Of a stretch of 64,000 nucleotides of DNA, positions 1 to 51,261 are shown piece by piece; the first letter of the stretch is position 1; the number at the start of each line of letters is the position of its first letter. The notes beneath the pieces were generated by a model that saw nothing but the letters and a program-made list of their open reading frames with translations, made no database searches and had not been told where the DNA came from. Source of the DNA: Eledone cirrhosa (taxonomy: Eukaryota); contig OZ024747.1 in NCBI GenBank assembly GCA_964016885.1, positions 42,222,001 through 42,286,000 on the forward strand, read 5' to 3'. The position numbers and the translations under genes are program-made.

Positions 1-433
1 TCAATAGCCATACAAAATCACCGGGAGAGATGACCCCTTAGCCCTTGTCAAAGCAGAATTCTAGGAGAAGGAAAACTCTGATATAACACCTGCAATCCTG
101 ATGGTATCCAATGATGTTGACTTGTTCTTCTTTTTGGTAAATATCATCTTGGTTAAGGGAGTGGGACTGGCTTTGTGCAGTGCCTTTGCTCACTATAAAA
201 GCTTCACGGCACAGGCATTGCTTTATATCTGGAGATCTCTGCACTTGTCGTCACATGGTACCATGGGCCCAGCACTATGTGTCAATAATTGTCACAAGTG
301 TAGTGTTTGTACCAGAGTTTTCATGTCGCAGGCTGGACTAAAAAGTCACACTCGTTCAGTGCATCGGTAGGGGTTCTCCTACATGGATATAAAGTAGTGG
401 CCGTACTCGAAAACGAGTTGGCAGCCACCATGT
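1..433 (+). mobile_element. Non-autonomous RTE-derived element (UTR-like head plus RTE 3' end with one C2H2 finger); 5' end runs off the window
   Basis: The 3' part encodes CSVCTRVFMSQAGLKSHTRSVHR*, like RTE C-terminal fingers. It ends ggccgtactcgaaaacgagttggcagccaccATGT, homologous to the RTE end at 7951-7990. A near-identical partial copy lies at 3990-4272. Confidence 0.75.
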
Positions 434-3400
434 TTTCTCTTTCTCTTAATTTCGAGTATATTTTTTTGACCGGCGACCTTCCTGGTGGCAAGGTTGTAAA
501 AGAAAAGAAATTGTCATCCCTTGAATCGCAAGAATGTTTTGCAAATTTTGAAGGTGCCAGCTATCGCAGCCATTTGTAGACTATGAATTAGGGAGCTGCG
601 TTTTTTGTCCGCAATTCCAAGTTCAGTCATACTTTGGTCCAAGCGGGTTGGTATATAACCCGTAGCACCAATAATGATGGGTATGAAGCTAAAGGTGTAT
701 CTTGGATACTGTATTTGTAAGCTCCTCATCAATGGTCCGTAGATGTCCTCCTTCTCCTGTATTTTTCTGACAACGTTTACATCAAGTGGGCAGCTGATCT
801 CCACAACAGAACACGTTTTCAATGTGTGGTCCCAAACTACAATATCAGGCCGGTTGTGCTTTAATTTGGTGGCAGTTTTTATTTTCAGGTTCCACCAGTA
901 TTCCTTAGTGCCATCTGTCTCAATATATTCTTCCTCGTTTGTTGTTAATTTTGTTTTCCGAAGTGCATTCCAGATGGTTCTAGCTATCCCATCGTGTCTC
1001 ATGGGGAGGTAGTAGTGAGATGACATTCTTTCGCAGCTGGCAACAATGTGGCTTACATTCTCGATCTTTGTTTTACATAGCCTACATTTATTGTCAGCTG
1101 CTGGCCCTCCTCTTTTGTGCAGCAGATATTTGGTAGGGAGTTCTTGTTCCTGTATTGCATAGAGATATCCCTCAAGGTGTGATGTCATAAACTTGTCGGA
1201 ACTCCATGCCAGGCTTTTTGAGTGGTTTATCCCCTCTATTGTCTGTGTTTTACGCCTCAAGTATCCATGCACAACTTTTTCTGTAAATTGGTCAATTTTT
1301 TTTATCTTGTTTGAACATTGAATAGGATCTTCCGATTTCTCTGGGTGAGAGATTTATATCAGGCTTTATTCCATATCTCTCCTCCAGATCAGTCGCTATT
1401 CTAATGATATTTCTTTTTTCATGCTCATAAACCTGGGCAAGATGGTTGCCAACCTTTTTCCTCTGTTGAAGGTGTTGCTTCAGTGTTACTATCCGGGTCT
1501 CATATGTTGTTAATATTGATTTTAGACCCCGGCCACCTTCCTTGCGTAAGAAGTATAGCCTATCCACATCACCATTGATGTTAAAGTTCCCAGTAACACT
1601 GAGAAGTTTTCGAGTTCCAACATCCATCTCACTTAGTTCAGTAGGCCAAATGTTGGCGTTAGAATTGGCACAGCATAAGTATCGTGGGCAATGTATTTGT
1701 TGTATGCTGACAGTTCTGATGACCATATTTTCTTTACTCTTCTGAGGTATTCAGTTCTGGTTCTCTCCTTATTTATGTGTCCATCATATCTGACATTCTC
1801 ATCCTGTCCAAGATATCTGTAGTTGTCACCTGACTGCAGAGGTTGTATTGTCAAGCCGTTCATCTCTAGATTTCTAGAGGAGGGCACAGCTCTTCCACGT
1901 TTTACTGCCAAATATGCACTCTTGGACTCACTAAATTTCATTTTGATGTCTGTTGAAAATTGTGTAATGAGGTCCAATTGTTTCTTGATGTCATTGATAT
2001 TTGGCCCATACAACTTCAGGTCATCAACAAAGAAAAGATGGGAGATACTTCTGGGCCCACTTCTTTGTCCACCTTGTTTCCTGAGTAGGTAAGATAGTGG
2101 ATTCAGTGAGAGAACGAAGAGTAGCAGTGACAAGCTATCACCCTGAAAGATGCCCTTCTGGTAATGTATCTTATCAGTCTTAACCTGCTCCTTCTCACCT
2201 CTAAGGATCAAATTGGTGTACCAGTTCTTGGTCAGGCGTTCAACAGCAGCTACCAATGGTTGTGGGACTTTAGCTAACTGTAAAGCCTTAATAATCCACC
2301 CATGAGGTACACTATCGAATGCTATTTGATAGTCCAGCCACACGACAGTCATGTTTCTGCGATTCTTTGTTGTTTTTTCCTGAATCATTTTGTTAGTTAG
2401 TAGGTGATCTATGCAACCCCACACCTCCCTTTTTCCACCAGCTTGCTCAGGTGTTATGATGTTGTTGGTAGCACAGTGATCCTGTAAGAACAGGTTAAGG
2501 CACCCAGTATATAATTTATACATGATGTTTTGGCAGGCAATTGGGCGGTAATTTTTAGCAAGGGTGGTTTGGCTATTTTGGGGAATGAGGAGAGTAGTGA
2601 CAGTTGATAACCGTCTGGGCAGTTCTTGTGTGCCCTTAATGGTTTCTGTAAACAGCCGTATGAGATCTTGCCGATAGAAAGTGAAATTCTTCAACCAGTA
2701 TCCTGTAATGAGGTCTGGGCCTGGTGATTTCCTATTCGACATTTTCTGTAGAGCTGTTTCCAGTATTGATCCATCTATGTCATATTGTTTTGTCTGGACA
2801 TGTTGGCAGTAGTCCTGTTCCAGTTTTTTAGCCAATTAGCTTGTCTGTTGAATCCGTCATCCGTTTCCCATACATATCTCCAGTAGCTCTCAACCTGTTC
2901 TTTTGAAGGGGTGTCGTTTACAGGGATTGAGCTTTTGCCACCGAAGCTGCGATATACTGATTTAGGATCTCTGGCAAACAATCTATTTAGCACTTGTCGT
3001 TTATGTGCTGTTGACTTATATTTTAGTCTTTCTGTTGTAGCTGTGAGTTGTTGTTTCAACTGGTGTCATTTGGAGTTTAAAGTTTTAAATTTTGTATCTC
3101 CAAATCGTCTCTCTAACCTTTTCTTTAGGTCTTCCTGGTGTCGTGTGAAGTTGCTCTCTATGTTGCATTTCATAACGACTGCGATGTGTGAGATACTTCG
3201 TCTCAGGGACAAAATTTTGGTTTTTAAATTTCGCATCCACGCTGGTTCAGGCTTTCTGTTTGTATCTTGATTGCGTGGTTTTAGATGTGTGTTATATGAT
3301 AGCAATGTGACAGCTGAAACATATAACAAAACATTAAGCGTTTCAAATGTCGTTTCTACACCTTTAGATCGTATAGCCTTCAGATAATTGCCAGCTATTT

Positions 3401-3891
3401 CGTTCACCGCTTCCAATTCCAATTTAGTGGGTTCTTTACTGACTCTAGTGTTGTATGGTCTGTCACTCACATTAAGGCTGTGTATCTCTTGAAACATATC
3501 GTTCCATATCACTTGTAGGGTGCCCACAAGTTTTTGGTGCTCTGTTTGTTCAGTAGAGTCATGAATTTCAGCCTCGTTGTTGATGTGGTGACAATTACTA
3601 CTAGAGTCAGCTGGCCTTTCTCGCTGTTCTTCAGTGGAAGTGGGATGGATTTCAGCAAAATTGTTGGTGAGCTGTTCACTGTTAGATTTAGCTGGCCATT
3701 CTCTTTGTCTGTCAGTGGAGGTGGGGTGGTTGTCTACAAGGGCTGTATTTGTAGTATCACTCAATTCCGTTAGATGTATCAATTTACATCTAATGATACG
3801 TTTTGCCTGTTCATTTAGATGCTTTGGAGAAAAGTCTAATTCTGGGTGTTTGGAGTTCCATAAAGTTTTTAGCCTTTGCATAAAACCGAAC
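434..3891 (-). mobile_element. R4/Dong-clade RLE non-LTR retrotransposon, family A, frameshifted and slightly 5'-truncated
   Basis: Broken ORFs 3893-3066, 3059-2775, 2835-1633, 1726-1292 and 1272-514. RT motifs NYRPIAC, WLDY..AFDSVPH, GIFQGDSLS, HLFFVDDLKLY; CCHC knuckle CRLC...HIVASC; RHD; restriction-like endonuclease NRPDIVV...VVEISCP. Confidence 0.92.
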
Positions 3892-3989
3892 ATGTATGTA
3901 TGTATGTATGTATGTATGTATGTATGTATGTATGTTTGAATGTATGTATGTATGTATTTTTATATGTATGTATGAATGTATATATGTAT
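3892..3989. repeat. (ATGT)n microsatellite
   Basis: Direct reading. Confidence 0.95.
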
Positions 3990-4272
3990 GGTTAAGAGAG
4001 TGGGACTGGCTTTGTGCAGTGCCTTTTCTCACTATAAAAGCTTCACGGCACAGGTATTGCTTTATATCTGGAGATCTCTCTACACTTGTCGTCACATGGT
4101 ACCAAGGGCCCAGCACTATGTGTCAATAATTGTCACAAGTGTAGTGTTTGTACCAGAGTTTTCAAGTCGCTGGCTGGACTAAAAAGTCACACTCGTTCAG
4201 CGCATCGGTAGGGGTTCTCCTACATGGATATAAAGTAGTGGCCGTACTCGAAAACGAGTTGGCAGCCACCAT
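3990..4272 (+). mobile_element. 5'-truncated second copy of the RTE-derived non-autonomous element
   Basis: Nearly identical to 150-431; followed by atatgtatgtatgt. Confidence 0.8.
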
Positions 4273-4295
4273 ATATGTATGTATGTATATACATA

Positions 4296-4577
4296 TGTCG
4301 GGACACTCTTGAGTACTATTGGTAACATGTAACCCAGTACAACCTGTCGCATGGTCAGGTCGTCGGCGACTAAATCGGCAACCTCACCAAGTTTACTTGG
4401 TGAGGAGGCTGATTTTGGATATCCTGCAGGACAAAAAACAAAACCTGACAAAGGGCGGAAGAACTCATAAGAGTCAACGGCCATCCCAAAGAGTGTAAAT
4501 ATGTATATACACATGTACATATGTATGTATATGTGTATATACATGGGTACATGTGTATGTATATGCGCGGGGACATA
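4296..4577. mobile_element. Structured short interspersed repeat, unclassified (second partial copy at 25531-25652)
   Basis: acaaagggcggaagaactcat..gagtcaacggccatcc...gcgcggggacata recurs at 25531-25652. Long hairpin aaatcggc..cctcaccaag/cttggtgagg..gctgattt. Confidence 0.6.
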
Positions 4578-4954
4578 GAAATAGTTGGGCTGGATACCCG
4601 ATCGCGCGGTTAAACCTCTGGGAGTGAAGGACCCCTAGCCTTTGTCAGGGCATTTTTATAGGAGAAGGCAACTCAGGAATCTGGGATAACTCTGTAGTTA
4701 CCGATGATGTTGATCTTTTCTTCTTTTCGGGTTATAGCTACTGTCGCTCAGAGAGTTGGATTGGCTCAATGCACAGTCTTTCCTCACTTTAAAAAAATTT
4801 TCACGCACAGGCATTGCACAATAGAATTAATTAATTATTATTAATGTTATATCGTGCAATGGCCATACTTGATAACGAGGGGGCAGCCATCATGTATGTA
4901 TGTATGTATGTATGTATGTATGTATGTATGTATGTATGTATGTATGTATGTATG
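4578..4954 (+). mobile_element. RTE-partner non-autonomous element with (ATGT)n tail
   Basis: Head is homologous to 32-221. The 42 nt at 4852-4893 match the RTE end at 7942-7983 with one mismatch. (ATGT)n tail follows. Confidence 0.8.
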
Positions 4955-5064
4955 TTATTTTGAGTTTGTTTTTTTCCCTTCCCTTTTCTTTTCTTTTCTT
5001 TTCCCTTCCCTTTTTTTATGTTTTGATGCCGCTGTTGTTGTTGTTGTAAATGTTCATTTCAGTT

Positions 5065-7636
5065 CATTCTGAAGCTGTTGTTGCTCGTCTTAAGGATAAA
5101 AATGTGAAGAGGACATTGGAAGAAGAGATGCAGGCTGCAGATCTTGGTGAGGATTGGCCGACCCTTAAAAAGTCGGTTTATGATGTGGGCAGGCGTGTTC
5201 TGGGATTGGTGCAGAGAAAACATCAGGACTGGTTTAATGAGAATGATGTACATATAGAAGACTTGTTGGCTGATAAGAGGCGTGCTCTGTCACGCTACTT
5301 GACGGCAAAACCACAGGAGAGGAATACGTTGCATGAGGAGCTCAGGGATGTAAAATCACGTGTTAGGCGGAGTCTTTCTCAGATGAAGGATCAGTGGTGG
5401 AGTGAGAAGGCTGATTCCAATAACACAAAGCTGTTGTACAGTCTCTTGCGTGAGGTTTATGGACCGTCTTCTTCTCTGGTGACACCACTTCGCAGCAAGG
5501 ATGGCAAAGAACTTCTTCGTGACTCACAGGGAATTCTACGAAGGTGGCGAGAGCACTTTGATGATCTCTTGAATCAGCCGTCTGTCGTCAGTGAAGATTT
5601 CCTCAATCTCATTCCAGAAAGTCCTGTGAAAGTAGCTCTCGCAGAACCTCCGACGCTTGTGGAGGTTGCAGTGGCTATTTCGAAGCTGAACAGTGGAAGA
5701 TCTCCAGGTATGGATGGCATACATGCTGAGCTCCTACAATATGGTGGTGAGAGACTCCTGCAACATCTGCACTCTTTGTTTGGAAGGATATGGGCTAATG
5801 AATCCGTACCTGAGGACTGGAGAGATGCAGTAATGGTGGTCTTGTACAAGGGAAAGGGTAACAGGAATGATTGTGGGAATTACAGATGTATATCATTGCT
5901 TTCTGTCGTAGGGAAAGTTTTATGTAGGGTGCTTCTGGACCGTCTGCTGACACACATTGCAGATTGTGTTCTTCCTGAAAGTCAATCTGGTTTTCGTGCT
6001 GGACGCGGCACTACTGATATGATCTTCTCAGCTAGACAGCTCCAGGAGAGGTGCATTGAACAAGGCTTGGATCTGTATCAGGTTTTTGTCGATCTGACAA
6101 AGGCTTTCGATACTGTCAACAGAGAGGCATTATGGAAGGTTCTCCAGAAACTTGGTTGCCCTGATAAGTTCCTTGCTTTAGTTAGGTTTTTCCATGACGA
6201 CATGAAGGCTTGGGTTAATGTCGGAGGTAACATGTCGGAGCCTATCTCAGTAAAAAATGGAGTGAAACAGGGGGATATTCCAGCACCGACCCTGTTTGCC
6301 ATATACTTTGCAATGGTTTTCTGTATTGCATTCAGGAATTGCGAGCATGGTGTTTACATCCGATATCGAACCTCAGGCAGCATATTTAACATCAGGCGCT
6401 TTGCTGCGAAGACAAAAGTATTTACATCAATCATAAGAGACCTCTTGTATGCAGATGATTGCGATCTTGTAGCGCACACAGAGAGTGATATGCAGCACAT
6501 TTGAATGCATTTTCTGACGCTTGCACTGCCCTGGGTTTGACTGTCAGTCTCAAGAAAACCGTCGTCATGTACCAACCTGCCCCTAGTAAGCAGTACACTG
6601 AACCAAACATCTATGTGTATGGCAAACGACTTGGAGTGGTTGATCAGTTTGTCTACCTGGGAAGCACTGTCAATCGATACGGCAACCTTGACAGTGAAAT
6701 CTCACTTAGGATTAGGAAAGCAAGTGATGCTTTCGGAAAGCTAGAAAGGCGACTCTGGGGTCGGCGAGACATATGCAGGAGGACAAAGGTAAAGGTGTAC
6801 AGGGCATGTGTACTCTCTTGTCTTTTTTATGCCTGCGAGACCTGGGTCACATATCGACACCATCTTAAGCAATTGGAGCGTTTCCATCAGATGTGTCTCA
6901 GACGGATCCATGGCGTTCACTGGAGGGACCACATCAGTGATGTCGAGATTTTGGAAAGCTCTATGTGTGACAGTATAGAAGCTCTTGTGCTTAAGCAACG
7001 ACTCCGTTGGAGTGGTCATCTTGCCAGGATGAAGGATTATAGAATACCAAAACAACTCTTCTATGGAGAGTTGATTAAAGGAAAACGACCGCCACATAAA
7101 CCAAAAAAGAGGTATAAGGATTCCTTGAAAGCCTCTCTGAAAGACGCTAACATCTCTGCTGATACATGGGAAAATATTGCTGCTGATCGTAATAAATGGA
7201 GAAAGACTGTATATGAGGGAAAAGTTGCCTTTGAGGCATCTCGAATCGCACACGAGAAAGTAAAGCGGGATGTGAGGAAGGGCATTGCTGTTGCACTTCC
7301 AGACGGCGAGGGTCCTCCTATGGTGCTGACATGCAGCGTCTGTGCGAGACTCTGCCTAAGCAAAGCTGGACTCGAAAGTCATCTTCGCAGTCATAAAGTA
7401 AGACCAGTGGTTGACTACCAGGCTGCTGTTGGAGATGCTACTCATCATGCTTGCCAAACATGTGGTAGAGAATGTAAATCAGCAGGAGGGCTCAAGCGAC
7501 ATGCAAAAGTACACGAACTCCAACCACAGCCGACTATTCCCAGTAAATGTTTTGGTTGCCGACTCTGTGCAAGACATTGTAGATCATTGGCTGGGCTAAA
7601 AAGCCACATTCGATCGCAGCACTGTTAGTTGTTATC

Positions 7637-7670
<34 letters not shown>

Positions 7671-8056
7671 GCTTATGTGCGTGCGTGTGTGTGTATATAT
7701 ATATGAATATGTATATTATTATTGTTGTTGTCGTTATTATTATTATTGCTATTATTATTATTATTGCTATTAATGTATGTGTGTGTGTGTGTATATGTGT
7801 GTGTGTATGTGTATGTATGTGTGTATGTATATATGTATGTATGTATATATATATTCTTTTTTTTTTTTTTTTAATTTATTATTATTATTATTATTATTAT
7901 TTTATTTAATTTTTTTATTTATTTATTATTTTTTTTTTTTCTCGTGCAATGGCCATACTCGATAACGAGGGGGCAGCCATCATCATGTATGTATGTATGT
8001 ATGTATGTATGTATGTATGTATGTATGTATGTATGTATGTATGTATGTATGTATGT
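5065..8056 (+). mobile_element. RTE-clade LINE, 5'-truncated (no APE domain), one frameshift near 6500, three C-terminal C2H2 fingers, (ATGT)n tail
   Basis: ORFs 5050-6504 and 6501-7628. Motifs GNYRCISLL, SQSGFR, FVDLTKAFDTV, GVKQG, LLYADD, YLGS, LRWSGH, IPKQLFYGEL. Microsatellite-rich 3' UTR with a terminal stem-loop. Confidence 0.95.
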
Positions 8057-8916: not shown

Positions 8917-8979
<63 letters not shown>

Positions 8980-8992
8980 ATGTGTGCGTATG

Positions 8993-9043
<51 letters not shown>

Positions 9044-9076
9044 ATGTGTGTGTATGTATGTGTGTATATATATATA

Positions 9077-10863
9077 GGAACAAGTAGGACCCTGACGGCT
9101 GAGCTCAAGCCGTTTCGACGGCTAATTCTGGACTAAATAAACATTTTTAGCCTGGTAAATGAATAGCCGAACTTCTCAGGGGGTAATTCCATATATGGTA
9201 AAAGTGATTGTCACAAGGATGGGTCAAAAGTTTGTTGTTAAGACATATGATTCTATCATGGCATTTTGTGGAAGGTAGGGGTAGCTGAACTTGCCAGTAG
9301 AAGAAAGAGGGAGAGGGAGTGGAGGAAACCCAGTCAAGCGTTGAAAGTGAAAAATACAGCAGATTCTAAGGATAGTGTATAGAAGGTCGAAAAAAGTACA
9401 CTAGAGAAGGGGGAGGGGAAGTTGAAACAATAAGTAAATCTAAAGGGAGTAAACAAAAAAGCCATTATAAAAATGAGGAAATATATAAACAATATATAAA
9501 AAAATATAAAAAACAATTTCTAGTTACTACTCCTCTTCCACAATCATCAAATCTCTCATTGGTACTGCTAAGCTATAGAAAAGTTTAATAGGTGGGAAGG
9601 AATACTAAATACGAGATTGTAGTGAAAGAATTTTATGAGGCCATCATTACAGGGGGTCTACCACCACTACTATATTTAGTAGTAATCAGCCAATGCTATC
9701 TTACAATGACAGGTCAATAAGTTGAGGACCAACATACTAAAAAAACTAATACGAAATATTAATTCAGAATCCCGAAACTAATACGAAATATTAATTCATA
9801 ATCCCGAAACATGAATACTAATACAATATATATAAAAGTACTGCTACAATACATAAATTCTAATACAATCTACATAATACTCATACAATATATATAAAAA
9901 AACTAATACAATATATATAAATACTGCTACAATACATACATTCTAATACAATCTACATAAATACTCGTACAATATATATGAAAAACTAATACCAAATATT
10001 AACCTGTCATTGTAAGATAGCTTTGGCTGATTACTACTAACTATCGTAGTGGTGGTAGACCCCCTGTAACGATGGCCTCATAAAATTCTTTCACTACAAT
10101 CTCGTATTTAGTATTCCTTTCCACCTATATATTTCCTCATTTTTATAATGGCTTTTTTGTTTACTCCCTTTAGATTTACTTATTGTTTCAACTTCCCCTC
10201 CCCCTTCTCTAGTGTACTTTTTTCGACCTTCTATACACTATCCTTAGAATCTGCTGTATTTTTCACTTTCAACGCTTGACTGGGTTTCCTCCACTCCCTC
10301 TCCCTCTTTCTTCTACTGGCAAGTTCAGCTACCCCTACCTTCCACAAAATGCCATGATAGAATCATATGTCTTAACAACAAACTTTTGACCAATCCTTGT
10401 GACAATCACTTTTACCATATATGGAATTACCCCCTGAGAAGTTCGGCTATTCATTAAACAAAAAAGCCATTATAAAAATGAGGAAATATATAAACAATAT
10501 ATAAAAAAATATAAAAAACAATTTCTAGTTACTACTCCTCTTCCACAATCATCAAATCTCTCATTGGTACTGCTAAGCTATAGAAAAGTTTAATAGGTGG
10601 GAAGGAATACTAAATACGAGATTGTAGTGAAAGAATTTTATGAGGTCATCATTACAGGGGGTCTACCACCACTACGATAGTTAGTAGTAATCAGCCAATG
10701 CTATCTTACATAAAAATGTTTATTTAGTCCAGAATTAGCCGTCGAAACGGCTTGAGCTCAGCCGTCGGGGTCCTACTTATTCCTATTACCCACTCTACTA
10801 CCCTAAGTATTGAGTACTTTGGTGCGTTATGGTCCATCTGGTTCCTTACCACACTTCCTTCGT
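9077..10863. mobile_element. Hammerhead-bearing non-coding element (Penelope pLTR/retrozyme-like) rearranged as a foldback between (TA)n tracts
   Basis: 10003-10455 is the reverse complement of parts of 9158-9714; 10456-10710 directly repeats 9451-9705; 10711-10783 is the reverse complement of 9077-9150. Related pieces at 39838-40090 and 40442-40577. Confidence 0.75.
9089..9184 (-). ncRNA. Type I hammerhead ribozyme motif with variant core (CUGAGAA)
   Basis: Minus strand reads cccc CUGAGAA G-uu-cggcua...uagccg-u-C GAAA CGGCU ugagcuc AGCCG UC aggg. Confidence 0.6.
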
Positions 10864-10890
10864 TATATATATATATATATATATATATAT

Positions 10891-13779: not shown

Positions 13780-14784
<1,005 letters not shown>

Positions 14785-20174: not shown

Positions 20175-20178
<4 letters not shown>

Positions 20179-20207
<29 letters not shown>

Positions 20208-20230
20208 TGTATGTATGTATGTATGTATGT
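20179..20230. repeat. (ATGT)n microsatellite at the R4 3' junction
   Basis: Direct reading. Confidence 0.95.
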
Positions 20231-23200
20231 TCTTCTGGTTTTATTATTTCACTAAGTTTTACCAATAGAGAGAGAGTCGGTTTCTAACATAGACACAAGA
20301 CTCTCTCATTGGAATTTACACAACATCAACTAGGTAGATATGTATGTATGCATACATGTGTAGATATGGATGTTATTGTATGTGTGAATGTGTATGTTTT
20401 GAGTTGTATGTGTGCATGTGTATATGCTTTGCATCTGTACATGTGTATATGCAGTTATTAGATGCAACATTTTTAGAAGGTTTTACATATTTTTTACTGT
20501 TCCATTAATAGATTGTACTTGTAATTTCCTAACTAGTTGTGTTCTTTCTGTTCCTGTTAAGCCTAGCTTCTCAATATTTGTATTGAGGCAGTTACTAATA
20601 TACCCCAGTGCCCCAATAATCACAGGCATAAATCTGAAGGTGTAATCAGGGTGGAGTATCTGCAGATTTCTCATCAGTTCTGCATAAATATTCTCTTTTT
20701 CACTAATCTTTGATATTATATTGGCATCTGCTGGGCAGCTAATTTCCACTACTGTGCATGCTTTCTTTTCCCTGTCCCATATCATAATATCTGGTCTGTT
20801 ATGCCTGCATTTTATTGGGGTTTTTACTGGAACATTCCACCAGTACTCTTTCATATTATGTACATGGATGTCTTCCACATTGATGTAGATTTTAATGTGT
20901 TTATTATCGGGGCTATCTTTTTAACGAACTGCATTGTACAGTGTTTTGGCCACTACATCATGCCTCATAGGTAGATAGTACCGCGATGACATCTTTGGAC
21001 AGCTGGTGATGACATGGCTGATATCCTCGATGTTAGTTCTGCAGAGTCTGCACTTGTTATCACATCTAGGTGTTTTGCCTGCATCCCTATCTCTTTTAAG
21101 AATCAGGTATTTCGTGTTAATTTCCTGTTCTTGGATTGCAAAAGCGTATCCTTCAAAGTGGGAGCCAATATAGCGGTTGTTGGTCCAAGATAGACTACTT
21201 TCCTTATCTATATTACTCTCACTCTGGAGCTTCCTGGCAACATATCCAAGCATGATTTTTTGCTGATAAGTATGTAGTTTTTCATCCATGGATTCACTGC
21301 GATACTGCCGAGCGACTTCACTGGGTGTGAGTTGTTGATTATCACACAGGGAATATCTCTCGAGGAGTTCCTTCCCAACTACCATGAACTTATCTGTTTC
21401 ATCGAGAAACGGGCTCCTACGCTTCGAGGTTCGTAGATGTCGGAGAGATATGATGCCACATTCAAATGATGTTAGGCCTCTGCCTCCCTGCTTACGTTTC
21501 AAGTAAAGGCGGTCTATGTCACTGTTGATGTGGAAGTTTCCGGTGTTGTTCAGTATTTTTCGAGTTCCAACATCAACTGCTCGGATTTCGTCTATTGTCC
21601 AATTGAGTATTCCAAACGTTGGTGTTAGGACAGACACAGCAAACACATTGTGAGCCACTGTTTTGTTTTGCGCAGAGAGTTCCGATGACCAGATATTTCT
21701 TAATCGGGTGTAGTATTCCCTGGTTACTCGATCTTTATTACAGATACCATTATAGGATATGTTCTCATCTATCCCCAGGTATCTGTAGCAGTCCTCATCA
21801 GATATCGGTGAAACAGTTAGGCCATTGATGACAATGTTGCTAGATTGGGTTGTTGTTTCCCCCCGCTTTACAGTCATGTATGAGCATTTATCTTGGCCAA
21901 ACTCCATTCCTATATCCTTTGAGAACGTTGTAACCAGGTCAAGATTTTTCTTCATTCCATCCTGTTCTTGGCATAGAGTTTCAGATCATCCACAAAGAAC
22001 TTATGGGTTAGGTTCGTATTTCTGTCCTCATGTGAGCCAATGACGTATCCCTCACATTTCTTGAGCAGAAAGGACAAGAGGTTTAATGACAAGATGAATA
22101 ATATAACAGAGAGACTGTTCCCCTGAAATATACCCCTGCAATATTTTATTTTATCAGTGAAAATAGAGTCTTCCCTCTCTGTCTTTAACCTTAGGATAGT
22201 AGCCTAAGAAGAAGACAGCCTCTCTGTGGCTCTGACAATAATGTCTGGGACTTTAGCAAGTTGGAGGGTCTCTATCATCCAAGAGTGGGGAACAGAATCG
22301 AAAGCTTTCCTGTAGTCCAGCCAGACTATAGCCATATTCCTCCTAAGTTATCGCACCTCCGACATCGCAGTTTTGTTGATTAGGAGTTTTTCAGCACATC
22401 TCCAAACCCTTTTCTTTCCAGCTGCTTGTTCATCTGTGATGATGTTATTATTTTCACAGTGATCTTGGAGGAATAGGTTCAAGCAGGCTGTATACATCTT
22501 ATACATCAGGTTCTGGCATGCAATGGGTCGGTAGTTTTTTGCCAAGTGGGTGTCTTTGTTCTTGGGGACCAGTAATGTTTGTGCTAATGTCAACCATTCT
22601 GGTATAAGTGTATCTCCCTTAAGAACTTGTTGGTAGAGGTCAGTAAGATACATCCGATAGAATATCAGTTTTTTATATCAGTAGCCGACAATCATGTCTC
22701 TTCCTGGTGTTTTCTTATCTTGGAGTTTTCCTATCACAGTCTCAAGGGTACCCTCACTTATTTCGTATGTTTTTGTTGTAGTGTAGGAGCAATAGTTCTT
22801 TCGGATTTCTCTTAGCCACACTGCATCTTGGTTAAAATTCTTCTTTTCACCCCATATTTTTCTCCAAAAGGAATCTATGTCTTTCTGGGATGGGGCCTTA
22901 GTGACACTCATTATTTTGCCCTTCATATCTCTATAGACTGAATCTTTTATTAAGCACTTTTCTCTCATCTACCTTCTTCAGGTATCGGTGTTTTTCGCTA
23001 ACAGCTCTCAATTCTTGTTTGAGGGTGATCAGCTTATATTGGAGAGTTCTGGTTCTACTGTTACCAAACATCGTCTCTATTTTATTTTTCACTCTTTGTT
23101 GGTGAGGAGTGAGGTTTTTTGTGTTTGTTTGCATGTAAGGAGCATTGTCACTTATCCTATGGTTTTTCGTAGGTCAGCAATCTTTTTTTTTATTTTAGCT

Positions 23201-24464
23201 ATATATGATGGTATTTTTGGTGGTGTTTTGTTCTTGTTAATATATCTGCTATCACCAAGATAATGCTTCACTGTCATTGCTAAGGCATATAAACAGGCGT
23301 TGATTTGCCAAAATGTTGGGGTTTTTATCCGTCGTAAATATTCATCCCCTATTTCGTCAATAACACGTAGTATTTCATTATTTGTTTTTTTTATTAAACA
23401 TTGTCGTTTTAACATGTTCTGCCAGAGAGATATTTATACATGAATTAATTTCTCTCTGGAAGATTTCGTTGAAGGAAGTTTTCAATTGTTTATACTTTTG
23501 ATTATCATTATCGATAGGGATTGGCAGTATCGGTAGAGGGTCGGACGCCATGCTTTCCAGCATAGTTACGTCCCTTTACGATCTGAGTTCAAATCCCGCC
23601 GAGGTTGACTTTGCCTTTCATCCTTACGGGGTCGATAAAATAAAGTACCAGTAATGCACTGGGTAATTGCTGGCCTTGTGCCTAAAGTAGAAACAATTAT
23701 CGATAGTATTTTCCACAACAGTCGAGGTAGACTCGGATGGTACACGTGGTGTCAAATTTATTCGATTATTATTATTATCGATAGTGTTTTCCCCAGCATT
23801 CGAGGTAGACTTAGATGGTACAGGTGGTGTCAAGTTTCTTACAGGCATAGTTGTTTCAAGGCGCTGTTTCGACCTGGTTGCTAGGAAGTCTAGTAGCATG
23901 GCGACCTGTAGCACGTGTTGTTGATAACATGTTTGTTGTGGGGGACTTACAATTAATAATATTTATCTTATTTTCAAACGTCGTTTGTTGGCGTAATTGT
24001 TTCGCTGTGAAATAATTTAGCTCTGGGTGCATTTCGTCCCAGTGTAGCTTCATTCTATTCATATAGCCAATGGAGGGATTGTTTTTTGCCATTTTATAAC
24101 AATTAAATAAATCATTATTAAGTTCGCAACTCCAAGAGAAATGCGATTTATAATTTCGGTTTCTTCTGTAGCTACAACTGAATAAAGTTTGATTACCTTC
24201 CTTGTTATTTGTCTTCGGTACTTCCTTAATTTGTTTGTTGATGTTGTGTTCAGCCATGCTGTTTGTAGCAAATCCTTGTAAAATGAATTATGTATTTAGT
24301 GAGATATCTCTACGAATTCGAATAAAAGGTGAAGATATAGTTAGAAGAATAACCAGTTATTCAACATAACTGTAGTTGTGGCATTACTGTCGGAGATAGT
24401 ATTCATCTTAAATTTAATAAATAGTCTCCCACGCCAAAATATGCGACTGATCGCGTTGACTATC
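20231..24464 (-). mobile_element. R4/Dong-clade RLE retrotransposon, family B, apparently full-length but decayed
   Basis: Broken ORF from ATG 24257 (GYMNRMKLHWDEMHPEL) through NYRPIACQN, CRLC...HVITSC, RHD and NRPDIMIWD...VEISCP; about 200-nt 5' UTR and about 225-nt 3' UTR. Confidence 0.92.
23518..23696 (+). mobile_element. SINE inserted into the R4 family B element, with TSD attatcgatag
   Basis: A box tggcagtatcgg, B box gagttcaaatc; flanking duplication on both sides. Confidence 0.9.
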
Positions 24465-24477
24465 TATGTATGTATGT

Positions 24478-25407
24478 TCTTCTGGTTTTATAATTTCACA
24501 AACTTTTACCAATAGAGAGAGAGAGTCGGTTCTAACATAGACACAAGACTCTCTCATTGGAATTTACACAACATCAACTAGGTAGATATGTATGTATGTC
24601 TGTATGTCTGCATGTGTAGATATGGATGTTATTGTATGTGTGGTTGTGTATGTTTTGAGTTGTATGTGTGGATGTGCATATGCTTTGTATCTGTACAAGT
24701 GTATATGTAGTTATTATATGCAACACTTTTGGAATGTTTTACTTATTTTTACTGTTCCATTAATGGATTGTACTTGTAATTTCCTAACTAGTTGTGTTCT
24801 TTCTGTTCCTGTTAAGCCTAGCTTCTCAATATTTGTATTGAGGCAGTTACTAACATACCCCAGTGCCCCAATAATGAAGGTGTAATCAGGGTGGAGTATC
24901 TGCAAATTTCTCATCAGTTCTGCATAAATATTCTCCTTTTCGCTAATCTTTGATATTATATTGGCATCTGCTGGGCAGCTAATTTCCATTACTGTGCATG
25001 CTTTCTTTTCCCTGTCCCATATCATAATATCTGGTCAGTTATGCCTGCATTTTATTGGGGTTTTTACTGGAACATTCCACCAGTACTCTTTCATATTAGG
25101 TATATGGATGTCTTCCACATTGCTGTAGCTTTTAATGTGTTTATTATCGGGGCTATCTTTTCTACGGATTGCATTGTACAGTGTTTTGGCCACTACATCA
25201 TGCCTCGTAGGTAGATAGTACCGCGATGACATCTTTGGGCAGCTGGTGATGACATGGGTGACATCTTCGATGTTAATTCTGCAGAGACTGCACTTGTTAT
25301 CACATCTAGGTGTTTTACCTGCATCCCTATCTCTTTTGTGAATCAGGTATTTCGTGTTAATTTCCTGTTCTTGGATTACAAAAGTGTATCCTTCAAAGTG
25401 GGAGCCA

Positions 25408-25409
<2 letters not shown>
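24478..25409 (-). mobile_element. 5'-truncated R4 family B copy, in tandem with the full-length one
   Basis: High similarity to 20231-21170; bounded by atgtatgtatgt and (ATGT)n 25410-25497. Confidence 0.92.
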
Positions 25410-25438
<29 letters not shown>

Positions 25439-25650
25439 TGTATGTATGTATGTATGTATGTATGTATGTATGTATGTATGTATGTATGTATGTATGTGTG
25501 TACGCATGTATGTATGTGTATATGTGTAAACAAAGGGCGGAAGAACTCATGAGAGTCAACGGCCATCCAAAAGTGTGTAAATATGTATATACACATGTAC
25601 ATATGCATGTGTATATACATGGGTGCATGTGTATGTATATGCGCGGGGAC

Positions 25651-26551
25651 ATACTGTGATGTCATAAGTATTATGACGACATAAGTACTGAGACGTCATA
25701 TGCACTGTGATATCATAGTACTGTGACGTCATGTGTACTGTGATATCATATGTACTGTGACATCATATGTACAATGACGTCAATGTACTGTGATGTCATA
25801 TGTATTCTAACGACATAAATACTGTGATGTCATATACACTGTAGCATCATATGTATTGTGACGTCATAAATACCGTGACGTCATATGTACTGTGATGTCA
25901 TATTATTCTGATGACATATGTACTATGACGTCATATGTATTATAATAACATAGTTACTCGTGGCAAGATGTACTGGAACACAGCACATCTTGTCATCAGT
26001 ATGTATGAACTGGGACATATACATCATGACGTCATATGTACTAGTAACGACATATGTACTGTGACGTCATATGTATTCTGACGACATGCGTACTATGACA
26101 TCATATGTAATCTGTCGACATATACACAGTGGCGTCATATGTACTCTGATGATCTATGCACTGTTACGACATATACACTGTGACGTCATATGTACTGTGA
26201 CGTTATATGTACTGTGACGATATGTGCACTGTGACGAAGTATGCACTGTGACGACATATACACTGTGACGTCATTTGTACTGTGACAACGTATGTACTGT
26301 AACGTCATATGTACTGTGACGTCATATGTATCTGATGTACTGTTACGTTATGTATACTGTGACGTTGTATGGAATGTGACGTCATATGCATTGTGACGAC
26401 ATTTGTACTGTGACGACGTATGTATTGTGACGCCATATGTACTATTACAGTGCTTACTGAGATGCCATATGTACTTTGACGACATATAAGCTTTGACAAC
26501 ATGTACTGTGACGAGATACGATCTGTGACTACTTATCAGCTGTGACGACAT
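25651..26551. repeat. Degenerate 17-bp minisatellite (consensus gtactgtgacgtcatat)
   Basis: About 50 diverged units with CpG-type decay. Confidence 0.9.
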
Positions 26552-29193: not shown

Positions 29194-30440
<1,247 letters not shown>

Positions 30441-35904: not shown

Positions 35905-37740
35905 GTAGTTAGTGTCTTATATAATGTTATTTGTGTACATTTAGTGTCTTATATAGTGTTATTTGTGTACAGTTATACATTTAGTGTCTTATTTAGAGTT
36001 ATTTGCGTACAGTAATATATATTAGTGTCTTATTTAGTGTTATTTGTGTACAGTAATACATTTAGTCTCTTACTTAGTGTTATTTGTGTACAGTAATACA
36101 TTTAGTGTCTTATTTAGTGTTATTTGTGTACAGTAATACATTTAGCGTCTTATTTAGGTTTATTTGTGTACAGTAATACATTTAGTGTCTTATTTAGTGT
36201 TATTTGTGTACAGTAATACATTTAGTCTCTTATTTAGTGTTATTTGTGTACAGTAATACATTTAGTGTCATATTTAGTGTTATTTGTGTACAGTAATACA
36301 TTTAGTGTCTTATTTAGGTTTATTTGTGTACAGTAATACATTTAGTGTCCTATATAATGTTATTTGTGTACAGTAATACATTTAGTGTCTTATATAATGT
36401 TATTTGTGTACAGTAATACATTTAGTGTCTTATTTAGGTTTATTTGTGTACAGTAATACATTTAGTGTCCTATATAATGTTATTTGTGTACAGTAATACA
36501 TTTAGTGTCTTATATAATATTATTTGTGTACAGTAATACATTTAGTGTCTTATTTAGTATTATTTGTGTACAGTAATACATTTAGTGTCTTATATAATTT
36601 TATTTGAGTACAGTAATATATTTAGTGCCTTATATAATGTTATTTGTGTACAGTAATACATTTAGTGTCTTATTTAGTGTTATTTGTGTACAATTAGTGT
36701 CTTATATAATGTTATTGGTGTATAGTAATACATTTAGTGTTTTATATAGTGTTATTTGAGTACATTTAGTGTCTTATATAATGTTATGTGAGTACATTTA
36801 GTGTCTTATATAGTGCTATTTGTGTACAGTAATACATTTAGTGCCTTATATAATGTTATTTGAGTACATTTAGTGTCTTATATAATGTTATTTGTGTACA
36901 GTAATACATTTAGTGTCTTATATAGTCTTATTTGTCTACAGTAATACATTTAGTGGCTTTTTATAATGTTATTTGAGTACAGTAATAGATTTAGTGTCTT
37001 ATATAATGTTATTTGTGTACAGTAATACATTTAGTGTCTTATTTAGTGTTATTTGTGTACAGTAATACATTTAGTGTCCTATATAATGTTATTTGTCTAC
37101 AGTAATACATTTAGTGTCTTATTTAGTGTTATTTGTGTACAGTAATACATTTAGTGTCTTATATAATGTTATTTGTGTACAGTAATACATTTAGTGTCTT
37201 ATTTAGTGTTATTTGTGTACAGTAATACATTTAGTGTCTTATATAATGTTATTTGTGTACAGTAATACATTTAGTGTCTTATTTAGTGTTATTTGTGTAC
37301 ATTTAGTGTCTTATATAATGTTATTGGTGTACAGTAATACATTTAGTGTCTTATATAGTGTTATTTGAGTACATTTAGTGTCTTATATAATGTTATTTGA
37401 GTACATTTAGTGTCTTATATAGTGTTATTTGTGTACAGTAATACATTTAGTGCCTTATATAATGTTATTTGAGTACATTTAGTGTCTTATATAATGTTAT
37501 TTGTGTACAGTAATACATTTAGTGTCTTATATAATGTTATTTGTGTACAGTAATACATTTAGTGTCTTATATAATGTTATTTGTGTACAGTAATGCATTT
37601 AGTGTCTTATATAATGTTATTGATGTACAGTAATACATGTAGTGTCTTATTTAGTGTTATTTGTGTACAGTTACATTTAGTGTCTTATATAGTGTTATTT
37701 GTGTACAGTAATACATTTAGTGTCTTATATAATGTTATTT
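35905..37740. repeat. 40-bp tandem satellite (catttagtgtcttatttagtgttatttgtgtacagtaata) with 32-bp variants
   Basis: Period 40 is visible in the line layout; about 47 units. Confidence 0.95.
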
Positions 37741-42879: not shown

Positions 42880-42885
<6 letters not shown>

Positions 42886-43346
42886 CAGGTTTCTAACATA
42901 GGCAAGACTCTTTTATTGGAATTTTATTACTACACAGGTTCGTGTATGTGTATGTGTGTGCGTGTATGTGTGTGCAGGTATAGATATTATTGTATGTGTG
43001 GATCTGTATGCTTTGAGTTATATGTGTACACTTGAACATGTTTTGTATCTGTACATGTGCACATGCAGTTATTACATGCAGAATCTTTGGAATGTTTTAC
43101 ATATTTTTACAGTTCCATTTATGAATTGTACTTGTAACTTCCTAACTAGTCGTGTTCTTGCTGATTCTGTGAAGCCCTGTTTTTCAAGATTTGTATTGGG
43201 GCAGTTAGTAACATATCCCAGAGCGGCCAAAGTCACGGGTATTAATCTGAAGGCATAGTCAGGGTGCAGTATTTGCAGATTCCTCTTTAATTCTGCATAG
43301 ATGTTCTCCTTTTCGCTAATCTTTGATATTATATTAGCATCTGCTA
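42880..43346 (-). mobile_element. R4 family B-related 3'-end fragment
   Basis: ADANIISKISEKENIYAELKRNLQILHP...VKICKTF plus the 3' UTR. Confidence 0.85.
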
Positions 43347-45815: not shown

Positions 45816-46007
45816 AAAGACGTGATTTACTTTGCTCCGGATTTTTGCGGATTGTTGTAAAAAAGAACTGTGAGTTTATTGATCAATTTAATAACATTGT
45901 TTGGTTTAGCCCCTTGCCTTGGCCGTCAGACGTTAAGTCAACAAATTTTCGCCCCTTTCTGGGGCGAAATTTTCAATTTTCATCTAAAAACTGTAGACTT
46001 GGTGGCA

Positions 46008-47782
46008 ATGGATGCCATTTCCACCTCGCACACTGTCGTGAGTGCCACGCCCACTAAGAAAAGTGGTGGAGGGAAGGTAGGAGTACAAAGCTTGCAGCCG
46101 TCCCCCCTCGCATCATCGAAAAACGTGGAAAATATCGAAACCGCGAAACCAAATCCGGCAAATAATACCAGCACCAACAACAAGAACAATGACAACAACA
46201 CCACAACCAACAACTGCAACAACAGCAACACCAATATTACCAACAGTGACAGTAACACGAAAGACAACAACACCAAAACAACATTTGCACAGACCGTAAA
46301 AAAAAACGAACTATACACGCCAATAGACATAACAAATGCTAAACAACTATTACAAGACGCAAAACAATTCGTGACTTTTGGCGAAAACGGTGCTTTTAGC
46401 ATCAATTCTCCACAGGAATTACGTAGAGAGGCTGTCCTGAAAACTGTGGTTTTCAGGACAATATCGAACGTAACAAGAAAACCAGCTCAATTATCACAAA
46501 ATGAAATTGAGCTGGTTCTAAAAGACGCAATGAAGGACTTAACCTTTATACAAAAAGGTAAACTGTTTGGTAGCATTTCGGTGCTGATGAACAACCAGTC
46601 AACAGCTCAAAAGTACTCGATAGCACCCATTGTGTCCCCCCACTTCACCTTTTACCCCACATACAGGGGGAAAAGGACACAAAGAATAAAAATAATGAGT
46701 ATCACACCAAATGTAAACATTTGGTGGATACTATGTGGAATAATAAACTTTGATGAAGACAAGATAATTTCAATAGGAAAGTCCTCCGGAGGTGTATTTG
46801 GTGGGACCAGCGTAGAAGTTCTGGTGCAAATGAACCCAGAACGAATAGCGAATATCCCACAACGCGTGCCTCTGGACGGGCTAACTTATATAAACATTTC
46901 AGTGGAGGGAAGGCGGCCGTCATGTTACCACTGCTTAAGCAGGGGTCACCTGAGGGCTGCCTGTCCTCAATTAACGAGTAAAAAAAGAAAGAAAAAGACT
47001 CTTCTGCCAACCCCGAACACAACAACACAACCACCACCACCACCACCACAACAACACGGAAAAATAACAACACAAAACACTGTTCCACCCAACCCCTCCC
47101 CACCTAAAACAAATACAAAAGCAACCACAACAAAACCCCAAAATATATCCCTCCTCAACAACACGGAAGAGGACTCCGTATCAACGTCACCCAGTGACGA
47201 CGAGGGAGAACCCTTTCAACAGGTGAAAAGGAAAAAAAAAAGGCACCACATTAACAAAAATGCCACAAACACACAACCACCAGCACAAACAGAAGAAACA
47301 TCACAAATAAAAAACCCACCCCTCCCCAAAACATAACACGTACTATAAAACGCAAACACCCGCAAGAACAACAAACAAAAACAAACACAACACAATAAAA
47401 ACTCTATACATACATTAACAAGAACAATAAAACGTTGATGAAAGCGATAGAAAATAACCCTTCGGTGGAAACCGAAGGGATCACTTTCACCTACGCAGCG
47501 AACAAACCGCACCTAATGATGATTAAGGTCCCAACGGAAACCTATGTAACTTTGAAAAAGAACCATCCAATGCATGTGGGGACCAACTGCACCAAACCAC
47601 ATAACAGCGTCCTATTGAGATGTTTCCCCACCCCCACACCAGACACCCACACCCCACCAAACACCCTAATCCCACCACACACTGATGTCCTCACCCCACC
47701 ACAAACCACCACCCCACCAAACAACCTTTCCAACACCCCCATGGAAATTGTGCAGCCTGGTCCCCAGGAGACGAAGAGGTAA
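46008..47782 (+). pseudogene. Tx1 ORF1 (gag-like), disrupted near 47336-47435
   Basis: VEGRRPSCYHCLSRGHLRAACP zinc knuckle, Asn/Thr/Pro-rich linkers, FQQVKRKKK motif. Confidence 0.8.
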
Positions 47783-47824
47783 GTAATTTCCTTTCCTCTT
47801 CCTTTTTACCTCTTCAGCACCAAC

Positions 47825-50800
47825 ATGGCCAATATAAGAGTTGGATGTGTGAATGCACGCGGCTTGGGGATGTCCTGGAAACAGGGCAAACTCTTAAATG
47901 ACCTCACGTCGCACAGAGTGGATGTAATCGTTATTTGCGAGTCCAGGATAAGCAGCGAGCGCCAACTGGCCCCCATCTTCGACGACTTTGAGATCTACGC
48001 ATCTCTCTGTCAGCAGAGGGGTGGGGGTGGGGTTGTCGTTCTGCTGCGAAAATACCTGGGTCTTGCCACACAGAAGGTACACCTGGACCCGGAGGGTCGA
48101 CTGGTGGTTTTAGACGTCGGCAGTGGTGAAGGTGGAGCTTTCAGGCTGGTGGCAGCGTATGCCCCATCGGGGACACCGCGACCGGACTTCTTCCGACGCC
48201 TGGAGAATTTCCTGGGAAGGTCTCGCTCCTTGCTTTTAGTGGGGGACTGGAATGGTATCCTGGATGCACGTTGGGACTATGTAGGGGCATGTCCCGATAG
48301 AGGGGGTGTAACAGCCTCAAACGATTAATCGGCCGATTTGATCTGGCCGATAGATATCGACTGGATTTTCCGACTGTGCCACGGTGGACGTGGAGTAATC
48401 GCAGCGGAACATCCAGGTCGTACCTAGATAGGTTCCTAGTTAGAAATAAGGATAGGGACATATTAAGCTGTCCACGAATGTTCATGGTTGACTATTCGGA
48501 TCACAAGTTGTTGACCGGAGTGGTCAACCTTGATAGAACTCATAGACAGGGACCCGGTTACTGGAAGCTAAACTTGTCTTTACCGACAAACAAAGCTTAC
48601 AGTAAGCGGATTAGCACACTAGTTAAGAAGCGTTTGACAGGGGCAATTGTCAACAACAGGTGGTGGGGATCTCTCAAGAGAGAAATTAAAATAGAATCCA
48701 TAGGTTTTAGTCGGGAATTAGCATCAGGTAGGAATAGAACTGAAAGGGAATTAACAAATAGAGTAGAAGAGGCGATTAGGAGTGGCAACGTGGCCGGCGT
48801 GCTGGCGTCAAGAACGGCCCTAGACCAGTTCTTTGATGCGAAGCACGAGGGCTGCGTTGTCAGGAGTAAAATACGTGCTCTGGGTAACGAGGGAGCCAAA
48901 GCTGTTAGCTGGGCCCGAGTGACAGAGGCAAAAAGTGGAAACAAGTCCACGATTCGGTCTTTGAAGGACCAGGATGGACGCGTGATCCTTGAACCTGTAC
49001 GGATGAGCGCGGCCTTTCAACGGCGCTTTGCACGACTGTTCGGGAGGGGCGGCGGGCCGGGTGGGGCCATGGATTTCGGTCCATACCTCGACGGTCTGGC
49101 GCGGCTCTCGGACGAGGAGGCGAAGTCCTGCGAGAGGCCGATTTCAGCCGCTGAAATAGGGGAAGCGCTGAGCCAATGCAGCAAACGCAGATCTCCGGGT
49201 CTCGATGGTCTACCATACGAACTTTATGTAGCGATGCCGGGCTTGTTCTCCGGTCTCCTCGAGGCGGTCTACTGCAACTGGCAACAGAACGGGAGAATTC
49301 CCAGTTCTGTGACCAAGGGCGTAGTCACGCTGGTGAGGAAGGACGAGAACAAGGGGGATGACATAGATAACTTCAGGCCCATAACTCTGCTAAACACAGA
49401 GTTAAAGATTTTGGCGAAGGTGTTAGCGAAGAGGTTGGCGCTTGTCGTCGGGAACCTGGTGGGAGAAGCGCAGACATGCGCAATCCCGTCCAGGTCCATA
49501 CACGACAACCTCCACCTCATGCGATACATCGTAGAGAGGGTAGGGAACGAACCCGGCTTTGGTGGGGCCCTGATCAACTTGGATCAATCTAAAGCGTTCG
49601 ATAGGGTTGACCATCGGTACCTGGATGCGGTGCTCGCGGCGTCAGGCTTCGGACCCGTTTTCAGGGGCTGGATTGCTGCAATGCACAGCAGCAACACCTG
49701 CTCGAGGGTCAAGGTGAACGGCTACCTCTCGGAGCCGTTCCAAATCACGCGATCCATTCGACAGGGATGCCCTCTCTCCTCCCTCCTGTATGTGCTGGCT
49801 CTCGAGCCACTACTGAGGAAGCTGGAGCTGTTGCAGGGCATCCCCTTGGAACCGCGATTGCGGAAAGCGGTGTCGGCCTACGCCGATGACGTGACACTAA
49901 TGGTGTCGTGCGCCTCGGAATTCGGACAGATCGGCACCTTACTGGAGGAATATGAAAGGTTCAGAGGAGCCAAGCTGAACCGGGATAAGTCCGTCGGTTT
50001 GCAACTCGGGACGTGGAGGGTCAAAACGATGCCCTCCGACGGCATCGTCGGATGCTGGACGGAGGGACCGGTGAAGCTGCTCGGGGTCTGGTTCGGACCG
50101 GACATCCAGGTGGAGAAAAACTGGGACGAGGTAACGGGCAAGGTGTTTGCACTCGCCCAGAAGTGGGCCGAGTGCAAACTATCCCTGAAAAGTCGAGCGG
50201 AGGTGGCGAACGCTTATATAGCGTTCGTCATCTACTACCGCTTGACCGTCGTGTCTTGCCCAGAGAAAACACTCGCCAAAATGGAGCGCGCGCTCTTCCG
50301 ATTTCTTTGGAAGAAGCGGGCTCCTTTGGTGAGAAGATCCATCTGCTGTCAACACCCTTCGAACGGAGGGCTGGGGATGCCGTGGCTGACGATGCGTAGA
50401 CACGCATTAAGGCTACGGCACCTCCAGGTATTCCTCACCGGTCAGCCGGTGTGGGCCCTGTTTGTGAGGCGAGCCTTTCCGAGACTCGTCTCACTCACCG
50501 AGCTGCAATCCTGGGTCAAGCAAAGACCGAGAAAAGTGGGCGACTGGCACATTGAATGTGCCCAGGCGCTCACGGCCCTCTGGCAAGCGGATCCGGCAAT
50601 CAGTGGAGACTCAACCTCAACATTCTATAGAGGGTTGGTTCGCAGTAAGTGCGACGACGCTCTCGGAGAGGCTCTGGGCATGGAGGAAGACGAGCTGGCC
50701 AGTCTGTTCGGTAGGACGTTTGGCCCGGGACCGATGGACAACTTCCAAAAGTCCCTGGCTTGGCAATGTTACCGAGGAGCTCTACCCGTTCGGGACAAGC

Positions 50801-51261
50801 TCTACAGACACGGGCGCCCGGGTAGGGACCCCTCGAAGAAGATCTGTCCAAGATGCGTGCGTGACGAGGAAACCGTCGCACACGCATTCGTACACTGCCC
50901 GGGCGTTGCTGACCTGTGGGGCTATGTAGAACGACTACTATCGCGGGTGGGACCAATCCGGTTGACCACCGAGAACATTGTCACAATCAAACCGCCTCCC
51001 CCTTTCAAAAACGAAGGAGAGGCGGTTTTCCTCTGTGTGATAGCCATGGCGAAAGAAGTTGTATGGTGGACAGGGTTGAAAGGGCTGAGGTCAGACACCT
51101 ATCTCTCCGGCCAACAACTGGTCTTTTTTTTCAAGTACCACTTTAGAAGAAGGATCAGAATGGAGAGAGAGGTGCTCTACCCCAGCAAGTTTTATGAAAG
51201 ATGGGTGAAAGTAGCGAGAATGGCCCGAGTGAATGGGCCTTCTCTCTATATCAGCCTGTAG
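47825..51261 (+). pseudogene. Tx1 ORF2 (AP endonuclease plus reverse transcriptase), one frameshift near 48310
   Basis: VGCVNARGL, GDWN, SYLDRFL, SDH, GYWKLN, NFRPITLLN, QGCPLS, YADD, CPRC...ETVAHAFVHC. Confidence 0.93.

Follow-up and report, generated by a model that had tools for sequence, protein, structure and literature searches.

Organization of the family A and family B copies

The DNA analysed here is a 64,000-nucleotide (nt) stretch of contig OZ024747.1 (forward-strand positions 42,222,001 to 42,286,000), referred to throughout as the window. It is animal DNA, rich in short interspersed elements (SINEs), microsatellites and remnants of long interspersed elements (LINEs), and it carries decayed copies of two families, A and B, of retrotransposons of the R4/Dong type. 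The copies sit in arrays of a four-letter repeat, (ATGT)n or, in the sense of the element, (CATA)n, likely because the element protein picks that repeat as its target. Coordinates are those of the window.

The family B locus opens with a 53-nt (TATG)n array (20178–20230, plus strand), which is the 3'-side target of copy B1. B1 itself (20231–24464, minus strand) is a near full-length, decayed R4/Dong-type element, which intact relatives match from N- to C-terminus in tblastn. Its coding remnant starts at 24176 with the N-terminal domain and runs as far as 20492 or thereabouts, where the endonuclease ends. The N-terminal domain (23955–24176, minus strand) was aligned with those of the loci L001, L002, L004 and L008, described below, and the model of the L001 domain resembles Myb/SANT-type folds (Z 5–6.2). 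It is followed by a linker and reverse transcriptase remnant (21964–23403, minus strand; 10 stops) and by the thumb, CCHC zinc knuckle and restriction-like endonuclease region (20492–21961, minus strand; 1 stop). A preliminary description had called B1 full-length; it is nearly so in extent, but decayed: its frames are broken, the aligned pieces contain 11 stops, and a SINE has inserted. The SINE (23518–23695, plus strand) is a later arrival bordered by an 11-nt duplication (23507–23517 and 23696–23706). A 13-nt spacer, TATGTATGTATGT or (TATG)3T (24465–24477, plus strand), leads from the 5' end of B1 to the 3' end of B2 (24478–25408, minus strand), a copy 5'-truncated inside the coding region and 92.4% alike to B1 over 948 columns. 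On the 5' side of B2 lies its target, an 89-nt (TATG)n array (25409–25497, plus strand).

The family A copy (434–3891, minus strand) is truncated within the N-terminal domain, with the reverse transcriptase and zinc knuckle still recognisable. Its 3' flank is the 3' end of an RTE element together with the first ATGT unit of the RTE tail (150–433, plus strand; 96.5% identical to 3989–4272), and on its 5' side lies an (ATGT)n array (3892–3990, plus strand), likely the remainder of that tail, which is in phase with 430–433 once the copy is excised. The RTE twin at 3989–4272 carries an ATGT tail as well. Since the proteins of A and B1 are only 49% identical (788 columns), the three large copies represent two divergent families, as had been proposed. 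An older family-B-like fragment (42886–43345, minus strand; 79% to B1/B2) has lost its last ~37 nt, in agreement with the earlier remark that the fragment near 42880–43346 has no intact ends.

Reads and contigs of four runs were compared with positions 20217–24480. The SINE of B1, of which the window holds many further copies, accounts for 23 of the 24 listed loose-end rows and for all 15 listed joints, and masks the flanks of other family B copies; contig 6 of run X1 crosses the SINE site without the SINE. In run X4 the depth on B1 falls about elevenfold, from ~630,000–670,000 at the 3' end to 51,000–69,000 at the 5' end, as would be expected of a large family of 5'-truncated copies. In run X9, where the depth at 20252 is 3,697, 3,127 reads extend past the ends of the compared stretch. 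This would fit ATGT flanks, but with end and flank unspecified the reads are not counted as support. A 21-nt pattern from the 3' end of family B had no match in viral contigs.

Junctions with the repeat arrays

A, B1 and B2 all lie on the minus strand, and the common 3' junction, ATGT|T, that had been reported for them was found at 433, 20230 and 24477. In the sense of the element, ACAT follows the 3' end of each copy and (CATA)n precedes its 5' end. The 5'-truncated copies were also said to adjoin (ATGT)n, and they do, A at 3892–3990 and B2 at 25409–25497. The junction at 433 has no more than one ATGT unit, the start of the RTE tail, directly behind the RTE 3' end, and the long array lies at the truncated 5' side of A. 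The truncation point of B2 shares a 3-nt microhomology, ATA, with the array.

The nick register is ambiguous by one base, as the last A of the element may belong to element or target. Under ATGT|T, the empty site of A keeps the phase of the repeat, with one surplus T at each B join; under TATG|T, it is the B site that keeps the phase, and three bases are repeated at A. Arrays at the truncation points, and a copy of A that has no tail, are left unexplained by a tail of the element's own making, which argues that the arrays predate the insertions.

The likelihood of such placement by chance was estimated with the four copies excised and with ATGT/ACAT runs of at least 12 nt counted. Positions in or adjoining such a run number 434 of 54,917 (0.8%), giving a chance of 2e-6 that three of four copies, and of 1.9e-4 that two of three loci, would be found at ATGT/ACAT. 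With three of the four copies there against 0.8% of positions, chance placement in ATGT arrays was rejected. The window was picked after the fact and the chance figures are generous; taken alone, the window junctions are suggestive of targeting.

Protein architecture and classification

The assignment of the copies to R4 in the preliminary description agrees with the order of their domains. In family A, Pfam recognises RVT_1 (E 9.8e-24) and zf-RVT (E 2.5e-6), and both A and B1 align end to end with relatives having one open reading frame (ORF) each, consistent with one ORF that encodes a reverse transcriptase of the type without long terminal repeats (non-LTR). A CCHC knuckle is followed by a C-terminal restriction-like endonuclease, and there is no APE domain. 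Residues C89, C92, H101 and C106 of the knuckle and P168-D169 and K200 of the endonuclease are invariant in an alignment of 21 sequences. This layout of A, B1 and L001 is the one described for R4/Dong elements in the available portion of PMC7998251. Membership in R4/Dong thus fits the domain layout, the comparison being with architecture and not with named R4, Dong or Rex6 sequences.

The structural model of the L001 protein (predicted local confidence, pLDDT, 85.9) is closest to R2 proteins caught in the act of initiating target-primed reverse transcription (E 8e-35). Its first 80 residues form three helices (pLDDT ~90), for which the best match was the Zeste DNA-binding domain (Z 6.2, root-mean-square deviation 2.5, 64 residues aligned), followed by ISWI, TRF1 and MYB domains (Z 5–6); Foldseek gave no match for this domain at E 0.001. 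To judge from this model, to which B1 and A align, the N-terminal domain is likely, though at middling Z scores not proven, to be Myb/SANT-like.

R4 and Dong possess a self-cleaving ribozyme resembling that of hepatitis delta virus at the 5' end. Rfam found no match in the window or in five of the loci. There is a possible 7-bp stem at the first base of B1 (24464–24420, minus strand), which has no Rfam match and does not occur in the best fold.

Three other placements were considered and rejected. Dong in the narrow sense inserts into (TAA)n, and the junctions here are in (CATA)n; the R2 clade is excluded by the lack of a zinc finger before the reverse transcriptase, and no ribosomal DNA (rDNA) occurs in the window; and Waldo, of the R1 clade, does not agree with an endonuclease that is C-terminal and R2-like, with no APE domain before the reverse transcriptase.

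Relatives in other datasets

A scan of metagenomes produced six loci (L001–L006) from 87 candidates, and a genome scan one distant locus, L007, from 25 candidates; in a first scan of viral contigs no relative was found. L001 has an intact single ORF of 1,161 amino acids, 50% identical to A and 49% to B1, and is flanked by (CATA)n at 1–76 and 4470–4541 in the same sense as in the window. Together with the anatomy of the window junctions, this independent intact element supports the (ATGT)n target preference that had been put forward. (CTTA)n borders L004 on either side, L002 at the 5' end and L005 at the 3' end, so that at least one end lies in (CWTA)n at four of the six metagenome loci. Complete relatives have 3' tails of ~600–1,050 nt. 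Intact relatives with CATA and CTTA targets are ~47–63% identical, and their repeats differ by one base per unit.

Two loci served as controls. L008, on a contig from a viral collection, is a Dong-like element (2399–6370) with (TAA)n at both ends. L007 (2795–6425) consists of three truncated R4-like copies stacked in (TAG)n. The L007 contig was binned as an archaeon and is likely animal host DNA in the bin; no description of a (TAG)n target was found in the literature searched.

A tree was calculated from 46 rows, a selection from 101 rows plus L008, with B2 and L006 omitted as too short. The rows comprise unnamed relatives, one Bombyx protein and the (TAA)n-flanked L008. A, B1, L001, L002, L004 and L005 fall in one clade of 23 of the 46 rows (support 100/100), a target being assigned for none of the clade's other 17 rows, and L007 and L008 fall outside it. 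The CTTA elements require one change (98/99); at the base of the clade, CATA elements branch off to either side. On these sequences, (CATA)n as the older state would fit the branching of the CATA elements, with a weak node at B1 (90/76).

Assessment of the target preference and of alternative explanations

A number of observations weigh against selection of the (CATA)n repeat by the element protein. Given landing in any microsatellite, the chance that two of three loci would be at ATGT is 0.046, and the ATGT signal in the window is carried by two arrays only. The fourth copy, at 42886–43345, lies outside ATGT context: it has (TA)n(AG)n on one side and a short (TA)n on the other, and ATGT at neither end. 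Among the relatives, the 5' end of L005 adjoins (ATA)n and not (CTTA)n; no array follows the stop within ~580 nt in L002 or within ~400 nt in L003, where the contigs perhaps end first; and L006, whose contig ends inside the element, shows no array. In the tree, the CATA-flanked elements do not form one clade (two changes; one change in 4% of bootstrap trees), and the node that sets family B beside the CTTA families is the weak one noted above. To these may be added a base shared by B1 and B2, discussed below.

Several of the same observations would suit a looser specificity, in which the clade recognises (CWTA)n, or short repeats containing TA, and the repeat supply of the host decides. Family B, a CATA family, groups nearer the CTTA families than family A; the window contains no (TAAG)3 run, leaving B without that alternative there; L005 joins two different repeats; and the older fragment is near (TA)n. 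Yet in the window AT, AC and AG repeats together span 2,025 nt and ACAT repeats 445 nt, and all three intact 3' ends are at ACAT, while L001 and L004 each have a single repeat type at both ends; we regard this explanation as doubtful. It is very improbable that the element itself makes the (CATA)n as a 3' tail, by slippage as in RTE, with the copies clustering passively in repeat-rich DNA. All four RTE 3' ends that a motif search found in the window do end in (ATGT)n, and the 3' untranslated region of family B has CATA-like runs at 20339–20350 and 24587–24599. Family A, however, has no tail past one unit. In A and B2 the long arrays adjoin the truncated 5' end, a place where no tail can arise, and the 5' ends of L001, L002 and L004 also border on arrays. 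A self-made tail was rejected as the main cause on account of the arrays at truncation points and the tailless copy of A.

The tandem stacking of family B had also been proposed, and B1 and B2 do lie in one array with a 13-nt spacer between them; what is less secure is that they are independent insertions. The pair could be one insertion duplicated locally via the flanking arrays (or homogenised by gene conversion), the upstream copy having lost its 5' part, in which case the target preference would stand and repeated insertion would not. At one of five sites checked, 20558, B1 and B2 share a T where the old fragment and 97–100% of the depth in four runs have G, and of 444 three-way columns the private changes of the two copies are alike in number, 9 and 7. 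At the other four sites, though, B2 is in the majority state and B1 is not; ~3% of the depth in two runs is without the majority G, and a minor subfamily would explain the shared T; retrotransposition usually yields copies that are 5'-truncated with microhomology; and L007 offers three truncated copies stacked in (TAG)n. Local duplication appears unlikely, and B1 and B2 may derive from one insertion or from one minor subfamily. Stacking as such is ordinary for microsatellite-targeting R4 elements, as L007 demonstrates in (TAG)n.

Comparison with known elements

R4/Dong elements insert into rDNA or microsatellites (PMC7998251, available text). As far as the accessible parts of PMC7998251 and PMC3812793 go, Dong of Bombyx mori, DongAg, DongBg and Dong1/2 of Darwinula are members of the R4 clade with a (TAA)n target, where the window families have (CATA)n. 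The likeness to Dong, in the same parts of these two papers, lies in a reverse transcriptase joined to a restriction-like endonuclease, a divergent N-terminal Myb/SANT-like domain without zinc fingers, and insertion into microsatellites. L008, which shows the Dong pattern and is flanked by (TAA)n, is ~31% identical to an intact relative and lies outside the 23-row clade. The present lineage likely aims at a four-letter repeat instead of the TAA repeat reported for Dong.

Dong-R4 elements are abundant in octopus, with 51 families occupying 92.7 Mb, five of which have 1,129 recent insertions (PMC13282606, in part); their abundance is also recorded in the available text of PMC8967140, and a full-length Dong consensus exists for O. 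bimaculoides (PMC9115989, in part). The portions of these three papers that were accessible give no target site for the octopus families. If the host is an octopus, as a SINE would suggest, families A and B are likely among them, the likeness being one of description only.

ACAY repeats, including (ACAT)n, are a known retrotransposon target, that of WaldoAg1, WaldoAg2 and WaldoFs1 of the R1 clade (PMC3812793, in part). Waldo elements, in contrast, have an APE-type endonuclease and belong to another clade, and the match in repeat is convergent. Togen, which is NeSL-related, and the HERO families combine a restriction-like endonuclease with microsatellite targets, (TG)n in Togen (PMC4640811, accessible part), but they represent other clades and other repeats. 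R2 provides the solved structures closest to L001 and is the source of the mechanism outlined below; it differs in its N-terminal zinc fingers and its 28S rDNA target.

The literature searched, which did not extend to Repbase, Dfam or a 2025 survey of such elements, yielded no R4 element that targets (CATA)n, (TACA)n or (CTTA)n. The available portions of PMC3774820, PMC13580325, PMC13586686, PMC12988792, PMC3747384 and bioRxiv 10.64898/2026.04.17.719288 likewise contained no (CATA)n or (CTTA)n target for R4.

Other features of the window

Two short elements at 1–431 and 4290–4955 resemble non-autonomous RTE derivatives, consisting of an RTE 3' end and an (ATGT)n tail, with a shared 5' region (15–221 and ~4612–4817) that is 69% alike. 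A 5'-truncated RTE at 5050–7984 has C-terminal C2H2 fingers and an (ATGT)18 tail, and its ORF gives way directly to microsatellites; it fits the description of RTE-2_OV in the available part of PMC9115989, a match by description only. Of the 78 matches to ATGTATGTATGT in the window, 77 are on the plus strand, reflecting a few co-oriented arrays. A piece of ~130 nt is found at 4448–4577 and 25530–25653 (91%), immediately to the right of both R4-bearing (ATGT)n clusters.

A near-complete L1/Tx1-like element (45861–51261, plus strand) comprises an ORF1-like frame, an endonuclease-like frame and a reverse transcriptase frame of 986 amino acids. Nested inverted and direct repeats of 95–99% identity at 8948–10874 make up a foldback-like structure, in which 9158–9487 pairs with 10455–10126 and 9450–9705 with 10455–10710. 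Remnants of mariner-like DNA transposons, 93% alike and with 66-nt inverted ends, lie at 13906–14771 and 29373–30257. Minisatellites occupy 35936–37740 (40-nt unit, 46.7 copies) and 25652–26443 (17-nt unit, 46.2 copies).

Proposed mechanism and significance

If the element protein does select the repeat, insertion may be pictured by analogy with R2 and Dong. The protein would bind a (CATA)n array, chiefly on what becomes the 5' flank of the element, and nick the (TATG)n strand at a fixed phase, after TATG or ATGT, whereupon reverse transcription would be primed from the nicked (TATG)n end. The second strand would be cut within the array and the 5' end joined, sometimes via a few matching bases. 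As array persists on either side of the insert, the locus would remain open to further insertion, and head-to-tail stacking could result. The tails of RTE elements, (ATGT)n, would supply some of the targets, the R4 copy then being antisense to the RTE, and the (CTTA)n of the sister families would likely have come from one switch from (CATA)n.

That A needed one unit only on its 3' side suggests that most of the recognition takes place on the 5' side. In R2, recognition is mostly on the 5' side. The bottom-strand cut of R2 is fixed and its top-strand cut variable (PMC5035012, accessible part), in keeping with the 3' junctions of A, B1 and B2, which are constant, and with their 5' junctions, which vary.

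Microsatellite targeting, stacking and nesting in tails are known habits; what is new, on the literature searched, is the four-letter target and the pair of (CATA)n and (CTTA)n within one clade. The evidence leaves us evenly divided on the broader proposition, that these elements constitute an undescribed, widespread sub-clade of R4/Dong living on four-letter repeats, with (CATA)n as the ancestral target and (CTTA)n adopted in a single switch, apart from the (TAA)n Dong, with intact members, and here parasitising the (ATGT)n tails of RTE. If the target preference is real, two tetranucleotide targets would be added to the short list for retrotransposons with a restriction-like endonuclease. The (CATA)n/(CTTA)n pair offers a simple route to the domain that sets target choice in the R4 clade, a clade that lacks zinc fingers and for which the matches found include no solved structure. 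The target preference would also account for the landing sites of an abundant class of cephalopod LINEs, and for the way in which the tail of one LINE feeds another.

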